IMG/VR virus record: IMGVR_UViG_2660238346_000033 | DNA length: 37,514 nt | Reading direction: 5' to 3' (one strand) | Source: a virus | Taxonomy: Duplodnaviria > Heunggongvirae > Uroviricota > Caudoviricetes | Part shown: positions 916 to 36,507 of the stretch, piece after piece | Layout: each line of letters opens with the position of its first letter | Position numbering within the stretch: the stretch's first letter is position 1 | Translations under genes and position numbers: made by a program | The notes under the pieces: generated by a model | What the model was told of the DNA's origin: nothing | Seen by the model: the letters and a program-made list of their open reading frames with translations, nothing else | Databases searched by the model: none

Positions 916-1002
916 GCCCGGATGGTGGAATCGGTAGACACAAGGGATTTAAAATCCCTCGGCGTTCGCGCTGTGCGGGTTCAAGTCCCGCTCCGGGTAC
1001 CA
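916..1002 (+). tRNA. leuZ: tRNA-Leu (anticodon UAA), long variable arm
   Basis: 87-nt sequence GCCCGGATGGTGGAATCGGTAGACACAAGGGATTTAAAATCCC...GGGTACCA read directly. Confidence 0.95.
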
Positions 1003-1046
1003 TGGGAAAGATAAGAATAAAATCAAAGCAATAAGCAGTGTCGTGA

Positions 1047-1069
1047 AACCACCTTCGGGTGGTTTTTTT
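1047..1069 (+). terminator. rho-independent terminator of the tRNA operon
   Basis: AACCACC-TTCG-GGTGGTT hairpin followed by T-run. Confidence 0.7.
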
Positions 1070-1154
1070 GTATTTGTATTTTGTGCAATGGCGGTTGAGT
1101 GGCGATGGTGTGGCGATATGCAGAAACAATGGTAGTGCACGTGCTGTTTAAACT

Positions 1155-1259
1155 CTAAGGATGAAGCAGAATTCTTCTGCAGCTCCTCCGTATTTCGCAT
1201 AGTGAACCAGGACCTCTGTTAAACAAAAATTTTTCTGGGATTTTTCCACTCGACTTCAT
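1155..1259 (-). pseudogene. hok-like remnant (34-codon ORF retaining the GSLCEIR motif but lacking the N-terminal transmembrane segment)
   Basis: DNA segment 1182-1210 is an imperfect direct repeat (about 24/29 nt) of the SLCEIR-coding part of the hok-like gene at 2011-2151; translation MKSSGKIPEKFLFNRGPGSLCEIRRSCRRILLHP; AGGAGG upstream of ATG. Confidence 0.35.
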
Positions 1260-1540
1260 TTTTCCTCCTGCAATCCACCAACAGGTACCTGCGCTAATCT
1301 ATCTTTTTAATCTGACAACATCTTGGGAAAAGGCAAATTCGTCAGATTTACTGTTTTTCTGCTGCCTCGAATGCCGATGTCTGAAGCACTGATAAGAGTT
1401 CTGTCTCTTTGATATAGATCTTTTTTTTGATGAATTGCACGACATATTATCGTTATGACACCTTCTTGTTAAAGGTATTGTACTCCTCATCTCGATTTTA
1501 TGATGTGGGCTATGATTGGTTAGTAATAGAGTGTATCGGT

Positions 1541-1822
1541 ATGCGATGTGGTTTATTAATGGCAATCTGCCTTTGTTTAGTATCTTTTAGCGGATATGCA
1601 GCAACAGGAAAGTCTGATGCTCAGATCAAAAAAGAAATAATTAAAGAATCCATTGAATCTTATCCAGGCAATTGTGCGTGTCCTTATAATCATGCAAGGA
1701 ATGGTAGTAGATGTGGTGGACGCAGTGCATATAGCCGTAATGGAGGGTATGACGTGGTATGTTATGAGGGTGATGTTACCGATGAAAGGATCCGGCAATG
1801 GAAGCAGGAGAATGCTGAGTAA
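1541..1822 (+). CDS. small secreted cysteine-rich protein of unknown function (AT-rich cargo gene)
   Basis: ORF with signal-peptide-like N-terminus MRCGLLMAICLCLVSFSGYAA, then a Cys-rich mature part (YPGNCACPY...CGGRSAYSRNGGYDVVCY); much lower GC than the flanks; start may be the ATG at 1559. Confidence 0.5.
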   Translation: MRCGLLMAICLCLVSFSGYAATGKSDAQIKKEIIKESIESYPGNCACPYNHARNGSRCGGRSAYSRNGGYDVVCYEGDVTDERIRQWKQENAE

Positions 1823-1896
1823 TCTCTTTTAACAGGTTTGTTGTGCGAGCATTATGTGCCGTTAACGGTACACTAGCTAGTGATAGTTCCAAAAAG

Positions 1897-1928
1897 AAAA
1901 CCCGCAGTTCTTACGCTGCGGGTTTGTT
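1897..1928. terminator. bidirectional rho-independent terminator
   Basis: CCCGCAG-loop-CTGCGGG hairpin flanked by an A-run upstream and a T-rich run downstream; lies between the convergent secreted-protein gene and the hok-like gene. Confidence 0.6.
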
Positions 1929-2010
1929 GTTCATGTCTGTGAGATAGGGTGCCACTTCAGCCAACCTTAGCAACCGATTGACGGGGGATTGCTCCCCCGT
2001 CGCGGTTTCC

Positions 2011-2151
2011 TTACTGCTTACACTGTAAGAACGCCGCAAACTCCGCTCCCCAGAAGCTCATCCGTATTTCACACAGCGAACCGTGTAGCATCCAGATGAT
2101 GAGGATTACCGTCACGCAGAACGTGATGGCCGTAAGCGATTTTTGCGACAT
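2011..2151 (-). CDS. Hok/Gef-family type I toxin (small membrane peptide, 46 aa)
   Basis: Translation MSQKSLTAITFCVTVILIIWMLHGSLCEIRMSFWGAEFAAFLQCKQ: hydrophobic helix followed by the SLCEIR...EFAAF signature of Hok proteins; AAGGAG RBS; below the ORF-track size cutoff. Confidence 0.7.
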   Translation of the reverse strand: MSQKSLTAITFCVTVILIIWMLHGSLCEIRMSFWGAEFAAFLQCKQ

Positions 2152-2342
2152 AGCGCTTGCTCCTTTGTTGGAGAGGCGCTAACCTATCACTTGCTTAAGG
2201 TAGATATGTTAGGGCCTCGGTTAAACAGAAATGTTTTCCGGGGCCTTTCCACATCTGGCCTTCGGGTATTCCCTCCGACCATCAGCCGAAAGGCACCCGC
2301 GCGTAATCTATCGCTTTTTTGTTACTCCGGCAATTCTGCCTG

Positions 2343-2603
2343 TTAATTCTGAGGTAAAGGCAAACTCATCTGATTGTTTCCCCTGTGTGAAGCTGGCAGC
2401 TCATGCCACGGGATACCTTCTGAAGAGTGAACGCCGGAGGTGTGTTTTGATGTGAATTTATGGAAAGCTTCCAGTGTTGAGAAGCATACGCCGCATTCCA
2501 GGTTGTTACACTGGTAATACTTTTGCCGCACGGTGTTTGAATCATTTTCAGGACGACTGGTGCGGATACGGGCAGATGCGCCACAAAGCGGACAACGGAA
2601 CAT
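2343..2603 (-). CDS. ogr: Ogr/Delta-type zinc-finger late-gene transcriptional activator
   Basis: MFRCPLCGASARIRTSR...YYQCNNLECGVCF: CxxC...CxxC arrangement like P2 Ogr; AGGGAGG RBS; sits next to gene D as in P2. Confidence 0.8.
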   Translation of the reverse strand: MFRCPLCGASARIRTSRPENDSNTVRQKYYQCNNLECGVCFSTLEAFHKFTSKHTSGVHSSEGIPWHELPASHRGNNQMSLPLPQN

Positions 2604-26476: not shown

Positions 26477-26995
26477 TCATTCGAAACTGGCAAGAATCTG
26501 TTCTCGAACAGAAGATTTCATCGTTAACCCACGATCTAGGAAAAATTGGAAATGCATTAAGGCTTGTTGTTTGTGTATAAGTCTCCTGCGCACAGCCTCT
26601 TGAAGTAGCCCTCCGTGGCGGGCGGCTTTTACACCGCGTTCCGCACACGTTTTATAAACCGCATTATCCGCCGAAAGACATGTTGCATCATGTATTCTCG
26701 CGTTAACAACGCAGCTTATGTCCGCATACTTCAATGCTCTCCTGCGATTTTTTATCTCAGCCATTTCAATAAAATGTTCAGGTTCGTAATCATTGGTGAA
26801 ATTGTATGGAAGTTGCAGGCGTGTAAGCTGTTCCTGAACATCAAGATTGTATTTAGCTTTTAGTTCCTCGCAGACATAGGGGTCAATCCACACACCACCC
26901 GGGTAAATTTGCCAGATAATATCTAAGCATTTACCTTCGTAAAAATCAGACAGTACATTCGTATCGATAACACATCTGGGGCATTCAAACGGCAT
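26477..26995 (-). CDS. PIN-like nuclease domain protein (candidate toxin/effector)
   Basis: N-terminal VIDTNVLSDF plus later acidic residues (E near 44, D near 104-123) fit the PIN pattern; GGAGAGG RBS; start overlaps the end of the upstream peptidase gene by 11 nt. Confidence 0.55.
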   Translation of the reverse strand: MPFECPRCVIDTNVLSDFYEGKCLDIIWQIYPGGVWIDPYVCEELKAKYNLDVQEQLTRLQLPYNFTNDYEPEHFIEMAEIKNRRRALKYADISCVVNARIHDATCLSADNAVYKTCAERGVKAARHGGLLQEAVRRRLIHKQQALMHFQFFLDRGLTMKSSVREQILASFE

Positions 26996-28130
26996 CCTCT
27001 CCGGCCTCCTGTTCGTCGTACCATTCATCCAGAAGATTGCTGAGAGCTTTTCTGTCTAATTCTAAAAGTTCAGATATGAAGGTTTCCGACGCGGAACCGG
27101 CTTCCCATGCTTTACGCGATAAGACGGTTAGGCGACCTTTATAATTTAGTGCTTCCCTAATGGGATTTGGCTCGTGTCTCTTCCAACCTTTACGATTGGC
27201 GGTTGCCCATAGGTATCTAGTGTTTTGTTGATTAATTAAATTACATTTACTAAGACGATCGATGATGCAAGTGGCTGATACTCTGAAAATGCTTTTTAGT
27301 CTAAGGACGGTTTCCTCATACGCCCATCCACCACCTTGCATGACGAATTGTTTTCGCAATGCGCTTTCTGGTACCAAAAAACAAGCAGCAAAGTGATTAG
27401 CAACTTTTTCTTCCGGTGAAATTGCTTTGCCATTAGTTTTATAGCTTTTAGCAGGGCCATCATACTCATCACGGTGGAAGATAAGATGAGCATATTCATG
27501 GCAAATACTGAAGATTTGACGTTCTATTGAAATGCTGTCGTGAACATTTACATAAATCGCGGTACCGTATTTGTTCGAAAACGCAGAAAATCCGAATACC
27601 ATCCCTTTATCGGTTTCTTCGCGATTGAACGGGATTACTCGAATATCCGATGCTTCCAAAATGGCTACAATGTCACCAACGCAAGTAGCGTTACCTATAC
27701 CAAGACGGAAACGTTCTTCCATAGCCTTATCTTCGACTCTTCGCAAATCTTCTGCTTTGGCGGTAAAAATAGGCATTGAGTTAGGAAGATCTTCTGGCAA
27801 ATTAGCATCAGCAGCTTCCTCAATTGCATTGATATTTTTTAACTTTTCAATCAACTCATTGCGAAGTTTGGCATCCAACAAATCCGGACTATCTGCCCGC
27901 ATTGCAAAACGAAACTCGCCATCATCTTGCTCATAAAAATACCCGATAGGCTTATCGAAAATCTTGCAGAGCATGATGAGTTGGGTAACGCTTGGGACGC
28001 CTAACGCCTGCTCAAACTTACTGTAGGTTTGACGAACAACACCGATCGCATCTGCGACGGCGCTTGCACTCATTCCCGCGTCGTTTCTGGCCTGAACCAA
28101 GCGTTCTGCTATACGCTGTTGAATGTTCAT
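26985..28130 (-). CDS. XRE-family HTH fused to ImmA/IrrE-type zinc metallopeptidase
   Basis: N-terminal HTH (QQRIAERLVQARNDAGMSASAVADAIGVVRQTYSKFE) and central HEYAHLIFH (HExxH) peptidase motif; AT-rich. Confidence 0.7.
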   Translation of the reverse strand: MNIQQRIAERLVQARNDAGMSASAVADAIGVVRQTYSKFEQALGVPSVTQLIMLCKIFDKPIGYFYEQDDGEFRFAMRADSPDLLDAKLRNELIEKLKNINAIEEAADANLPEDLPNSMPIFTAKAEDLRRVEDKAMEERFRLGIGNATCVGDIVAILEASDIRVIPFNREETDKGMVFGFSAFSNKYGTAIYVNVHDSISIERQIFSICHEYAHLIFHRDEYDGPAKSYKTNGKAISPEEKVANHFAACFLVPESALRKQFVMQGGGWAYEETVLRLKSIFRVSATCIIDRLSKCNLINQQNTRYLWATANRKGWKRHEPNPIREALNYKGRLTVLSRKAWEAGSASETFISELLELDRKALSNLLDEWYDEQEAGEDAV

Positions 28131-28627: not shown

Positions 28628-29587
28628 TTACTCCTTGTCCATTGCGTACAACCCATTAACCAGAGCAAACTGTGGCACCCCGTCCGCGATGAAAGTCGCA
28701 TTAACTCCGCAGGCTTCGCGGATAGCGGGTGCCACAATCTCCGCCCCGCCACCGACAACCATCACCCGCCCGTAACCCGAAAAACCCGCCAGCGCGCGGA
28801 TCACGCGTTGTTTCAGTGTTTCTTCCTTTTCACGAATAACCGCCATCAGGCTGGCGTAATGCGCGTCATTATGGATGTGCTGGCGCAGCCAGGCTTCATC
28901 ATGGCGATGTTCGATAATGGTATTGGCGATGTGGTGACTGGTGCGCATACCGTTAGTGGCCATCACCGACAGTACGGCATCGGCCATCAGAGAAACGCCT
29001 ACGTGTGGATCGCAAAACACCTGGCTGATACCTGCCAGTTGCCCCTGAACCTTTGCCACATCCAGCGTGGTTCCGCCCAAATCCACAATCAGCAGGGATT
29101 CAAACGGACTCATGTCAGCCAGTGCCTTAAAGCCAGCCGGAATGGATTCAGGCATAACCCGCACGTTACGGATAGTGAATGCTTCGCCGTGCTGGTACTC
29201 CACCGGGCGCATAACGTTCGCTTTTTTGCGGTTGATGTTGGCCATGTCCGGCTGTGCGTTTGTGTCGAAATACTCGCTCAGTGGCAGGGTGACAACCACA
29301 TCCACCTCCTGTGGCGTGATGCCTGATTTGACCAGCGCGTGATGAATGGCAATGACATTCACATCGCTGTACTGGTATTGCGTGTCGGTCGTCTGGACAA
29401 AGCGATCGCTGACCGGATCAAAACCATAGCGCACGCCATCAAGCATGTAGTTCGCGGGCTGCGTGCCACCGAACGGCGCAGACCATTCCGACTTGAAGCT
29501 GTTCGGGCTGATGGCGTTGCGGCGTTCGCCGTTCTCAGTCCATGCCAGCTTGATGTTGGTGGAGCCGTCGTCGATACAAATTTTCAT
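28628..29587 (-). CDS. parM: ParM/StbA-like actin-type segregation ATPase
   Basis: MKICIDDGSTNIKLAW... (phosphate-1), LIVDLGGTTLDV (phosphate-2), VMVVGGGAEIV (adenosine) motifs; N-terminus closely resembles R1 ParM. Confidence 0.8.
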   Translation of the reverse strand: MKICIDDGSTNIKLAWTENGERRNAISPNSFKSEWSAPFGGTQPANYMLDGVRYGFDPVSDRFVQTTDTQYQYSDVNVIAIHHALVKSGITPQEVDVVVTLPLSEYFDTNAQPDMANINRKKANVMRPVEYQHGEAFTIRNVRVMPESIPAGFKALADMSPFESLLIVDLGGTTLDVAKVQGQLAGISQVFCDPHVGVSLMADAVLSVMATNGMRTSHHIANTIIEHRHDEAWLRQHIHNDAHYASLMAVIREKEETLKQRVIRALAGFSGYGRVMVVGGGAEIVAPAIREACGVNATFIADGVPQFALVNGLYAMDKE

Positions 29588-35479: not shown

Positions 35480-36130
35480 ATGGCCGTCAACTCAAACGGT
35501 TCAAACAATCGCGTTGCTGGGCGTGATTTTCACGAAAAGAATATTCAGATAGAGCGATATGATGGTTCTCAGACCGTCAATATCGCAATCCCTTCGAATA
35601 ATGATGATGACGATCGCCCTTTGCTTAAGGCTCAGCGTAAGGAGCTAAATAGCTTGGTTGCTGCTATTGCAGAAGCTAGCAATACTGAAGCGTTTATTAT
35701 TTGGCAAAAAGTACATGCGGAGATTGGTGTAGCTGGTATTGATGATATGACAGTAAATCAATATAAAACAGCGGAGAGTTTTCTGCATGCAATGCTTGAG
35801 CGATGTAAAGATCATGATGCCTGTAAGGCTCTTGTAAGTTTATTACTACGTAACAGTGAAGACTGTGGACTTCGACAAAAACTTCTGCGGTATTGCCATA
35901 TCAATTTCGGTACAGGACGTTTAAACGATCTTACTCGTTCTCAGTTACAGTCTGCATTGTCGTGGTTAGAGCAACAATCGGCATCAAGCCACACAGAGAG
36001 TTCGACCTTACCAGAAGTCCGACTTCGTGCTTCAGAATTAATCCGACTTTATCCAAAAGAAATAATATTCTTTATCTGCGTAGGGGTTTTGGTAGGCGGT
36101 GTCATTTCTAGGGCGTTTTTTAATTTGTAA
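35480..36130 (+). CDS. cargo protein with C-terminal transmembrane anchor, unknown function
   Basis: 216-aa ORF, GGAGG RBS, C-terminal hydrophobic helix IIFFICVGVLVGGVISRAFF; AT-rich. Confidence 0.55.
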   Translation: MAVNSNGSNNRVAGRDFHEKNIQIERYDGSQTVNIAIPSNNDDDDRPLLKAQRKELNSLVAAIAEASNTEAFIIWQKVHAEIGVAGIDDMTVNQYKTAESFLHAMLERCKDHDACKALVSLLLRNSEDCGLRQKLLRYCHINFGTGRLNDLTRSQLQSALSWLEQQSASSHTESSTLPEVRLRASELIRLYPKEIIFFICVGVLVGGVISRAFFNL

Positions 36131-36159: not shown

Positions 36160-36507
36160 ATGAAAGTAAAAAAGGTTCAACTATTAGTTACTTTTTTATC
36201 TATGTTTTCTTTTTCCGCCGTCGCAATGCCTTTTAAAACTATTGAACGTGAGAGTTTCAATGGGGTATGGCCATTTAATACTGATGAGGTTCAATTACAG
36301 TGTCTTGATGGTAATCCTTATGTGATGAATTTTGACGATAATAAGTTATATGCACTTACAGGTTTGGCTCGAATAAAAGGTAAAACATTTGGTGCGTTAC
36401 CGTTAGATAACAATAATCCATTTTGGCTAGATAATGATGCCGCCCCAGGGTTAAAAAAGAGTCTGGGGGATGTCACTAAGGCTGCATTTGATTTATGTGA
36501 TAAGTAA
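36160..36507 (+). CDS. small secreted/periplasmic cargo protein, unknown function
   Basis: 115-aa ORF with signal peptide MKVKKVQLLVTFLSMFSFSAVA; AT-rich; ends 6 bp before integrase. Confidence 0.55.
   Translation: MKVKKVQLLVTFLSMFSFSAVAMPFKTIERESFNGVWPFNTDEVQLQCLDGNPYVMNFDDNKLYALTGLARIKGKTFGALPLDNNNPFWLDNDAAPGLKKSLGDVTKAAFDLCDK

Follow-up and report, generated by a model that had tools for sequence, protein, structure and literature searches.

A probable hok/sok-type toxin-antitoxin locus beside the relic of a paralogous locus at the ogr-proximal end of a P88-like prophage in leuZ

We analysed a stretch of viral DNA of 37,514 nucleotides (IMG/VR record IMGVR_UViG_2660238346_000033; hereafter the window, numbered from its first letter), and find that it very probably carries a hok/sok-type type I toxin-antitoxin (TA) locus at the ogr-proximal end of a P88-like prophage in leuZ, with the dead relic of a paralogous locus and exchangeable cargo beside it. 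This reading draws on the homology, anatomy, conserved RNA structure and distribution of the locus as observed here. An initial annotation, made from the letters of the window, had described a Hok-family toxin gene, a degenerate hok-like copy and an AT-rich gene between them as a region beside the tRNA cluster; the region indeed adjoins leuZ, but it is the ogr-proximal end of a prophage and not core chromosome. The toxin gene itself is of an ordinary, known kind, already annotated and catalogued, and the findings have little import beyond annotation. Our contribution lies in placing the locus in a prophage, mapping its RNA elements, dissecting the deletion in the relic and noting that this allele has no mok frame.

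The hok coding sequence, at 2011-2151 on the minus strand, encodes a peptide of 46 amino acids (aa), MSQKSLTAITFCVTVILIIWMLHGSLCEIRMSFWGAEFAAFLQCKQ, and the proposal that this open reading frame (ORF) is a Hok-family toxin gene is borne out. The peptide matches Pfam HOK_GEF (PF01848), scoring 30.1 bits where the cut-off is 22 (E 3.7e-07), and PHROG 251 over its full length (E 2.5e-23), and it has the transmembrane (TM) helix and the LCE motif of the Hok/Gef family; its matches to the NCBIfam models HokA and Hok have scores that stay under the equivalog and subfamily cut-offs. RefSeq names the product (WP_000078920.1) a Hok/Gef family protein, and gp52 of phage P88 is annotated alike. We examined 33 distinct relatives of the locus, drawn from IMG/VR contigs, E. 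coli, E. albertii, Salmonella, Citrobacter and an Stx phage, which are the relatives counted throughout. The hok ORF is intact in all 33, mostly at 96-100% protein identity, and at ~63-74% in the four most distant. Three contigs labelled as a Planococcaceae metagenome-assembled genome (L012), Vagococcus sp. (L013) and Xanthomonas pisi (L016) carry the enterobacterial hok-ogr segment at 74-100% protein identity, and are probably the result of contamination or mis-binning.

A recent catalogue lists 1,264 Hok peptides (Escalera-Maurer et al., bioRxiv 10.1101/2025.08.07.668861, 2026 preprint). One of these, 72_1621, belongs to the abundant 60%-identity cluster 72 and is among the cloned representatives (Table S2 of bioRxiv 10.1101/2025.08.07.668861); 42 of the 45 Hok homologues tested in that work were toxic, the non-toxic ones being 19_179, 60_1482 and 69_1540. 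The window peptide is identical to 72_1621 at 45 of 46 positions, with V15A as the sole difference, and shares with it the length of 46 aa, the Shine-Dalgarno (SD) context GGAGC and the C-terminal WGAEFAAFLQCKQ. Through this near-identical peptide, the toxicity test of the cloned ORF that the initial annotation had asked for may be regarded as effectively published. Cluster 72 loci, whose tested members include 72_1621 and 72_1589, reside in P2-like prophages and Stx2a phages, and nothing material distinguishes the window Hok from the cluster at the protein level; Sok, mok and the mRNA elements were left unmapped for cluster 72 in the preprint (bioRxiv 10.1101/2025.08.07.668861).

Around the hok ORF, sequence comparison and folding predict a hok-type mRNA of ~400 nt that would run from 2298 to ~1893 on the minus strand. 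Its promoter (2305-2333, minus strand), read from the sequence as TTGCCG (2333-2328) and TAGATT (2310-2305) with a 17-nt spacer, ends 7 nt before the mRNA 5' end at 2298 and is aligned with the promoter regions of K-12 hokC and hokB. A sigma-70 consensus scan reported neither this promoter nor the candidate sok promoter described below at its threshold, and both were placed by homology. The mRNA begins with the tac element GGGUGCC (2292-2298, minus strand), at position 1 of the Rfam sok model RF01794, and this element is nearly invariant among the relatives, one of which has a gap at the sixth base. The RF01794 model aligns in full (model 1-157) with 2141-2298 on the hok-sense strand (47.9 bits, E 4.6e-09); the model ends in the hok AUG, and so represents the leader. 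Towards the 3' end lies the fbi element GGCACCC (1947-1953, minus strand), which is complementary to the mRNA 5' end. A hairpin terminator follows at 1898-1925, shared by the hok mRNA on the minus strand and the cargo gene on the plus strand; the terminator scan scored it on both strands, in agreement with the bidirectional terminator first proposed at this place.

The minimum free energy (MFE) fold of 2298-1893 is closed (-178 kcal/mol, z = -8.6), with mRNA nt 1-15 paired with nt 337-352, including GGCACCC at 1953-1947. When the closed structure was projected on the 33 relatives, 95.2% of cells were paired, compared to 38-45% when the partners were slid, and two-sided changes were found in 18 pairs, compared to 5-9 in the slid controls. 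In the tac/fbi helix 93.5% of cells are paired; its core of 7 bp is almost invariant, so covariation there is uninformative. The hok SD, GGAG at 2163-2160, lies within a sequestering hairpin of the MFE fold (2153-2179, minus strand; helix 7), in which 95.9% of cells are paired in the relatives.

The initial annotation had mapped neither a Sok-like antisense RNA nor a mok frame, and had suggested an alignment to hok/sok loci and a search upstream of hok. The alignment places a Sok homologue at 2199-2254 on the plus strand, where both K-12 sokC and sokB map (alignment A1). Thus the Sok region, like the mRNA 5' end and the tac and fbi elements, can be located by homology, but no mok frame that overlaps hok exists in the window. 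The 5' end of the Sok homologue could lie at about 2192-2199. The segment 2199-2254 folds into a GC-rich hairpin followed by UUUCC, and this hairpin has a z-score of -5.3, compared to -4.3 for SokC and -3.7 for SokB. From these sequence features an antisense RNA from the region is likely, and we infer that Sok is expressed. The search upstream of hok yielded a weak sok promoter candidate on the plus strand (2157-2185; predicted only), consisting of TTGCTC (2157-2162), a 17-nt spacer and TAACCT (2180-2185). In alignment A4 TAACCT does not vary, and 31 of the 33 relatives share TTGCTC, in a segment that overlaps elements conserved for other reasons. TATCAC (2185-2190) was also considered as the sok -10 box and rejected, being not conserved and having no -35 box at a workable spacing.

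The degenerate copy, first noticed as an imperfect repeat of the hok core at 1182-1210, is real and larger than had been described: pairwise alignments and alignment A1 delimit the relic of a paralogous hok/sok locus at 1144-1345 on the minus strand. Its surviving parts are a hok promoter that has decayed, the 5' leader and, with the frame shifted, what is left of hok codons 24-46. Positions 1144-1208 align with 2014-2082, in the 3' half of hok (70% identity, E 2e-06 in a small search space), and 1209-1308 with 2211-2317, in the leader and promoter (72% identity, E 1e-12, likewise in a small search space); the multiple alignment extends the match to ~1345, facing ~2345. The 128 bp at 2083-2210 of the intact locus have no counterpart in the relic. 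This deleted segment holds hok codons 1-23, which encode the TM helix, as well as the SD and its hairpin, the candidate sok promoter and the Sok 5' end, and 1144-1345 contains no intact hok ORF, SD, sok promoter or Sok 5' end. A 4-nt gap shifts the frame of the rest of the relic, and the -35 spacing is lost. The ancestral frame would have read ...GSLCEIR...EF.., so the relic comes from the same Hok cluster. The ORF of 34 codons that had been described here as lacking the TM segment (1155-1259, minus strand, from the ORF list) exists, carries GSLCEIR and has indeed lost the TM-coding half, but it is not conserved and is a chance frame, not a gene. It is the leader frame fused across the deletion junction, and is broken in other relic lineages by a stop (L005) or by 1-nt indels (L010); Pfam reports no domain in its 34-aa product.

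Of 5,426 complete E. coli genomes, 615-666 (~11%) contain the relic, always unannotated and in three sequence types, and all the copies found share the same deletion and lie beside the leuZ attachment (att) arm. It is the least conserved segment of its neighbourhood, with 80-84% identity in the divergent lineage, compared to 88-93% for the flanks and 96% for the cargo gene. This is the conservation pattern of a pseudogene, and on sequence grounds the relic is taken as the dead remnant of a sister locus. A distant-mode search of the complete E. coli genomes for an undeleted ancestor of the relic returned none, with weak matches to intact cluster-72 leaders besides. Similarly, blastn of window 1075-1890 against the phage collection gave no match, so no sequenced phage in it carries the relic or this cargo. 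The relic merits annotation as a pseudogene or repeat region, since about one in nine complete E. coli genomes carries it without any. In E. coli O157:H7 strain SS17 (L004 3497-7128), the relic and the AT-rich gene are kept at 99% identity, while elements of the IS3 and IS30 families stand in place of the intact hok and ogr and cut gene D short; in this strain the live hok copy is gone and the dead one persists.

Between the relic and the intact locus lies the AT-rich cargo gene (1541-1822, plus strand; RefSeq coding sequence WP_001303543.1 of E. coli 55989), with 35-42% GC. It is the convergent gene for a Cys-rich secreted protein that had been predicted between the two copies: the 93-aa product has a signal peptide and a mature domain of ~65 aa with four invariant Cys (SYPGNCxCPY...RCGGRSAYSR.GGY...CY..DV). 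It matches PHROG 27544 (E 1.8e-56) and has 233 homologues across Proteobacteria, all of them named hypothetical. Pfam reports no domain in the protein, and its confident AlphaFold2 model (predicted local distance difference test score 82.8) matched no solved structure in the PDB. A relationship to YdcA of K-12, a small secreted protein encoded convergently with hokB, was considered and rejected, as BLASTP showed no similarity (E 0.28). The PADLOC models of defence systems match neither the Hok nor the cargo protein.

The cargo varies among relatives of the prophage. Strain PSS-08-2 has the same relic and att arm, then genes for a zinc-ribbon membrane protein and a VasI/TagO-like protein, and then the same hok-ogr segment, the breakpoints being close to 1411 and 1936. 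A set of 63 related loci has at least 12 distinct sequences after the hok fbi element, among them genes for a DNA methylase, a RES-domain protein, TM2 and zinc-ribbon proteins and a WapI-like protein. As a variable moron, the AT-rich gene belongs to a set of interchangeable cargo modules that are found between hok and the attachment site, and variable cargo may be sought in this hok-to-att interval of P88-like prophages.

The setting of the locus is defined by comparison with K-12, in which the gene order is leuZ, the small RNA (sRNA) 3'ETS-leuZ and yecA, with none of the prophage region between leuZ and yecA. The window begins with pgsA (1-549) and the glyW-cysT-leuZ tRNA genes (701-1002), matches K-12 up to ~1071 and diverges after that. 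The comparison of the leuZ-yecA region, which the initial annotation had proposed, thus finds the K-12 site empty, and the region to be a prophage insertion that had been missed. The left prophage junction is an att repeat at 948-1071 (plus strand), made up of the 3' 55 nt of leuZ, 3'ETS-leuZ and the terminator, and this ~123-bp repeat recurs in E. coli 55989 directly beyond the integrase gene (L009 3151-3029), after which K-12-like DNA and yecA resume. Because the element is bounded by these ~123-bp repeats, the DNA from 1072 onward is prophage, and the segment from ~1072 to the end of the window is a P88-like prophage of the P2 family (Xuanwuvirus, Peduoviridae), inserted site-specifically into leuZ. 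Its backbone starts next to the hok locus with ogr, the P2 late-gene activator (2343-2603, minus strand; Pfam Ogr_Delta E 5e-14, RefSeq), which is adjacent to D (2603/2646); D, tail-sheath and tail-tube genes lie to the right of ogr, as annotated in E. coli 55989, and a tyrosine integrase gene is found in the last 1 kb. Over 25 kb it shares 95-96% identity with Escherichia phages 520873 and P88, and the identities recorded for these two phages span 95-99%. Thus the late-gene order, the integrase at the other end, the att repeats and the empty K-12 site are all those of a P2-like (Peduoviridae, Xuanwuvirus) prophage.

Between the att repeat and the relic lies an att-proximal arm (1072-1143; no strand assigned). 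It is invariably linked to prophages integrated in leuZ, and its conservation between lineages is 88-93%. Two direct copies of GTGGCGAT, at 1099-1106 and 1110-1117 and 11 bp apart, lie in this arm and may be arm-type sites of the integrase. The att repeat takes in the whole of the 3'ETS-leuZ sRNA sponge along with the 3' 55 nt of leuZ, and lysogens therefore have a second, promoter-less partial copy of leuZ-3'ETS beside yecA.

In the mechanism that we propose, the hok mRNA would be transcribed from TTGCCG-17-TAGATT on the minus strand, pairing of tac with fbi is predicted to lock it in an untranslatable closed form, and the hok ribosome-binding site would be hidden in the local hairpin. The Sok homologue would be an antisense RNA of ~55-65 nt (~2192/2199 to 2254, plus strand), complementary to the leader. 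The toxicity of the near-identical peptide and the mechanism of plasmid R1 are taken here from the literature: by analogy with R1, trimming of the 3' end would open the mRNA, and pairing with the unstable Sok would lead to its destruction; once Sok synthesis stops, the 46-aa Hok would insert into the inner membrane and kill or lyse the cell. The paralogous locus would have been inactivated by the one 128-bp deletion and the frameshift. The prophage may benefit by stabilisation against loss, by exclusion of other phages or by help with lysis on induction.

Several observations weigh against this reading of a working hok/sok locus. The RF01794 match, at 47.9 bits, does not reach the gathering score of 59, and the candidate sok promoter, besides being missed by the sigma-70 scan, agrees with the consensus at only 3 of 6 positions in each box. 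The structural covariation comes from closely related sequences, and from a structure derived from one member of the set. For the same alignment, the RNAalifold consensus is a 5' tac hairpin, in which GGGUGCCUUUC is paired with GGAAAGGCCCC, in preference to tac/fbi; the closed structure was therefore tested explicitly, as described above. By analogy with the R1 model, this 5' hairpin would correspond to the tac stem of the processed, open mRNA, and the locus shows both the tac/fbi closure and the alternative 5' tac hairpin of a hok/sok mRNA. Finally, no ORF from upstream overlaps the hok start in the window allele, in which all three frames are closed between 2197 and 2179, and a mok frame to which hok translation could be coupled is thus absent. 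The leader ORF in the mok frame is truncated to 19 codons, from the AUG at 2254 to the TAA at 2197-2195 (2195-2254, minus strand, from the translations), the other two frames close at 2189-2187 and 2181-2179, and position 2207, at which mokC and mokB start in K-12, is AUA here. In several relatives, the frame cut by the TAA at 2197-2195 runs from a leader AUG into hok (...ASDRLAP..KRSKRYVAKIAYGHH...). From the mok-less window allele, Hok may be poorly translated or untranslated.

If hok cannot be translated without mok, the intact-looking locus would be silent, an early-stage pseudo-locus carried as neutral baggage, a possibility that we take seriously but consider doubtful. It fits with the closure of all three leader frames 16-34 nt upstream of the hok SD, including that of the ORF from AUG 2254, and with the pattern among the relatives: an ORF overlapping hok is found in 12 of the 33 and uses three different starts (-130, -103 or -28), while the other 21 have none, which suggests no selection on mok. 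However, a silent locus is difficult to reconcile with the intact hok ORF in all 33 relatives and with the retention of the whole mRNA structure, tac/fbi and SD hairpin included; the conservation of both the ORF and the structure argues for continuing selection on the locus. Moreover, the foot of the SD hairpin is where the leader ORFs end, and terminating ribosomes could therefore open it; in one possible mechanism, ribosomes that terminate at 2189-2179 would melt its 5' arm. On the reading of a working hok/sok locus, Hok would be translated from the mok-less allele, and either the cluster couples translation differently, or many alleles, including that of the window, translate Hok poorly. 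A wider proposal seems unlikely to us, namely that the widespread cluster of 46-aa Hok peptides, present in P2-like and Stx phages, works without a Mok-type frame, by means of a short leader ORF that ends at the foot of the SD hairpin, and that the locus and its dead twin mark the edge of an exchangeable cargo slot by the att site. Whether hok translation depends on a mok frame beyond plasmid R1 is a question for which the locus offers a natural test.

Two other accounts concern the relic and its place beside the cargo. The two hok segments might be kept as flanking homology, or the relic as part of an attP arm, so as to define a slot for swapping cargo. Indeed, the relic and att arm are constant while the cargo differs, the AT-rich gene of the window being replaced by the VasI/TagO-like and zinc-ribbon genes in PSS-08-2, and the variety of sequences that follow the hok fbi element among the 63 related loci is in line with such exchange. 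We nevertheless hold this account to be improbable: with only 70-72% identity across ~100 bp, the two copies have diverged too far to recombine efficiently by homology, no part of the region is less conserved than the relic, the breakpoints lie outside it, and just two types of cargo were seen between the relic and the intact hok. A role of the hok segments as recombination anchors for cargo exchange is thus weakly supported. Alternatively, the relic could be left over from an earlier leuZ prophage, beside which the present one integrated before the former decayed. The position of the relic at the very edge of the element, adjoining the att repeat, and the absence of window 1075-1890 from all records of the phage collection would agree with such tandem occupancy. 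We find it very improbable, because no att repeat is found other than those at 948-1071 and past int, and so none between the relic and the intact hok; in addition, the relic, cargo and hok-ogr segment form one uninterrupted stretch both in IMG/VR viral contigs and in over 300 genomes, and the product of the AT-rich gene matches a PHROG family.

Our preferred reading, of a prophage-borne hok/sok locus with a dead relic beside it, invites comparison with known systems. The window locus resembles R1 hok/sok (parB) and K-12 hokB/sokB and hokC/sokC in encoding a small TM toxin with an LCE(I/V)R motif, in its leader of ~147 nt and its mRNA start GGGUGCC.. as in the Rfam model, in the tac/fbi closure and the alternative 5' tac hairpin, and in having the putative antisense RNA region at the same distance from the hok start. 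It differs from these loci in that no mok overlaps hok and the sok -35 candidate is shifted and weak, in that its Hok has 46 aa compared to 49-52 aa and no basic residue before SLCE, and in its location in a P2-like prophage, in contrast to a plasmid or the core chromosome. With hokW-sokW of the Stx2 prophage Sp5/933W it has in common that it is a prophage-borne type I TA locus of the hok/sok kind; hokW-sokW has been shown by experiment to be toxic and neutralised by its sRNA, and aids phage release after induction (PMC8621323). HokW, however, has 51 aa, belongs to a different Hok cluster and is carried by a lambdoid phage unrelated to the P2-like element. The label 'MokW-like host killing' of P88 gp52 is the name of the PHROG family and no evidence of orthology. 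The relic, for its part, is like K-12 hokA (with its IS150 insertion and mokA pseudogene) a chromosomal hok-family locus disabled by a lesion; unlike hokA, it was disabled by an internal deletion of 128 bp, which took away the N-terminus of the toxin as well as the sok promoter, and it travels with the attachment arm of a prophage.

A 141-nt hok gene of cluster 72 also occurs in Stx2a phages, with 84% DNA identity over the whole mRNA. This locus is found in phage Lyz12581Vzw (L099 1566-1706) and about 90 records of Stx-converting phages, and its 46-aa product is separate from the experimentally studied 51-aa hokW.

Elsewhere in the prophage, an overlapping pair of genes on the minus strand (26477-28130) encodes a protein with a helix-turn-helix (XRE) and an IrrE/M78-peptidase domain (26985-28130) and a PIN-domain protein (26477-27028), and looks like a second, protein-based TA or defence-like cargo module. 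A ParM/StbA actin-like segregation gene lies at 28628-29587 (minus strand; Pfam E 3.6e-82) and is also annotated in P88 and 520873. Directly upstream of the integrase gene is a DUF2511 gene (36160-36507, plus strand); together with an ORF of 216 aa at 35480-36130, for which there is no Pfam match, it makes up uncharacterised cargo at the int end. The leuZ prophage of E. coli strain H3 (L005 5445-7360) carries SIR2-family and TIR-domain genes between ogr and D, a defence-type insertion that is absent from the window.

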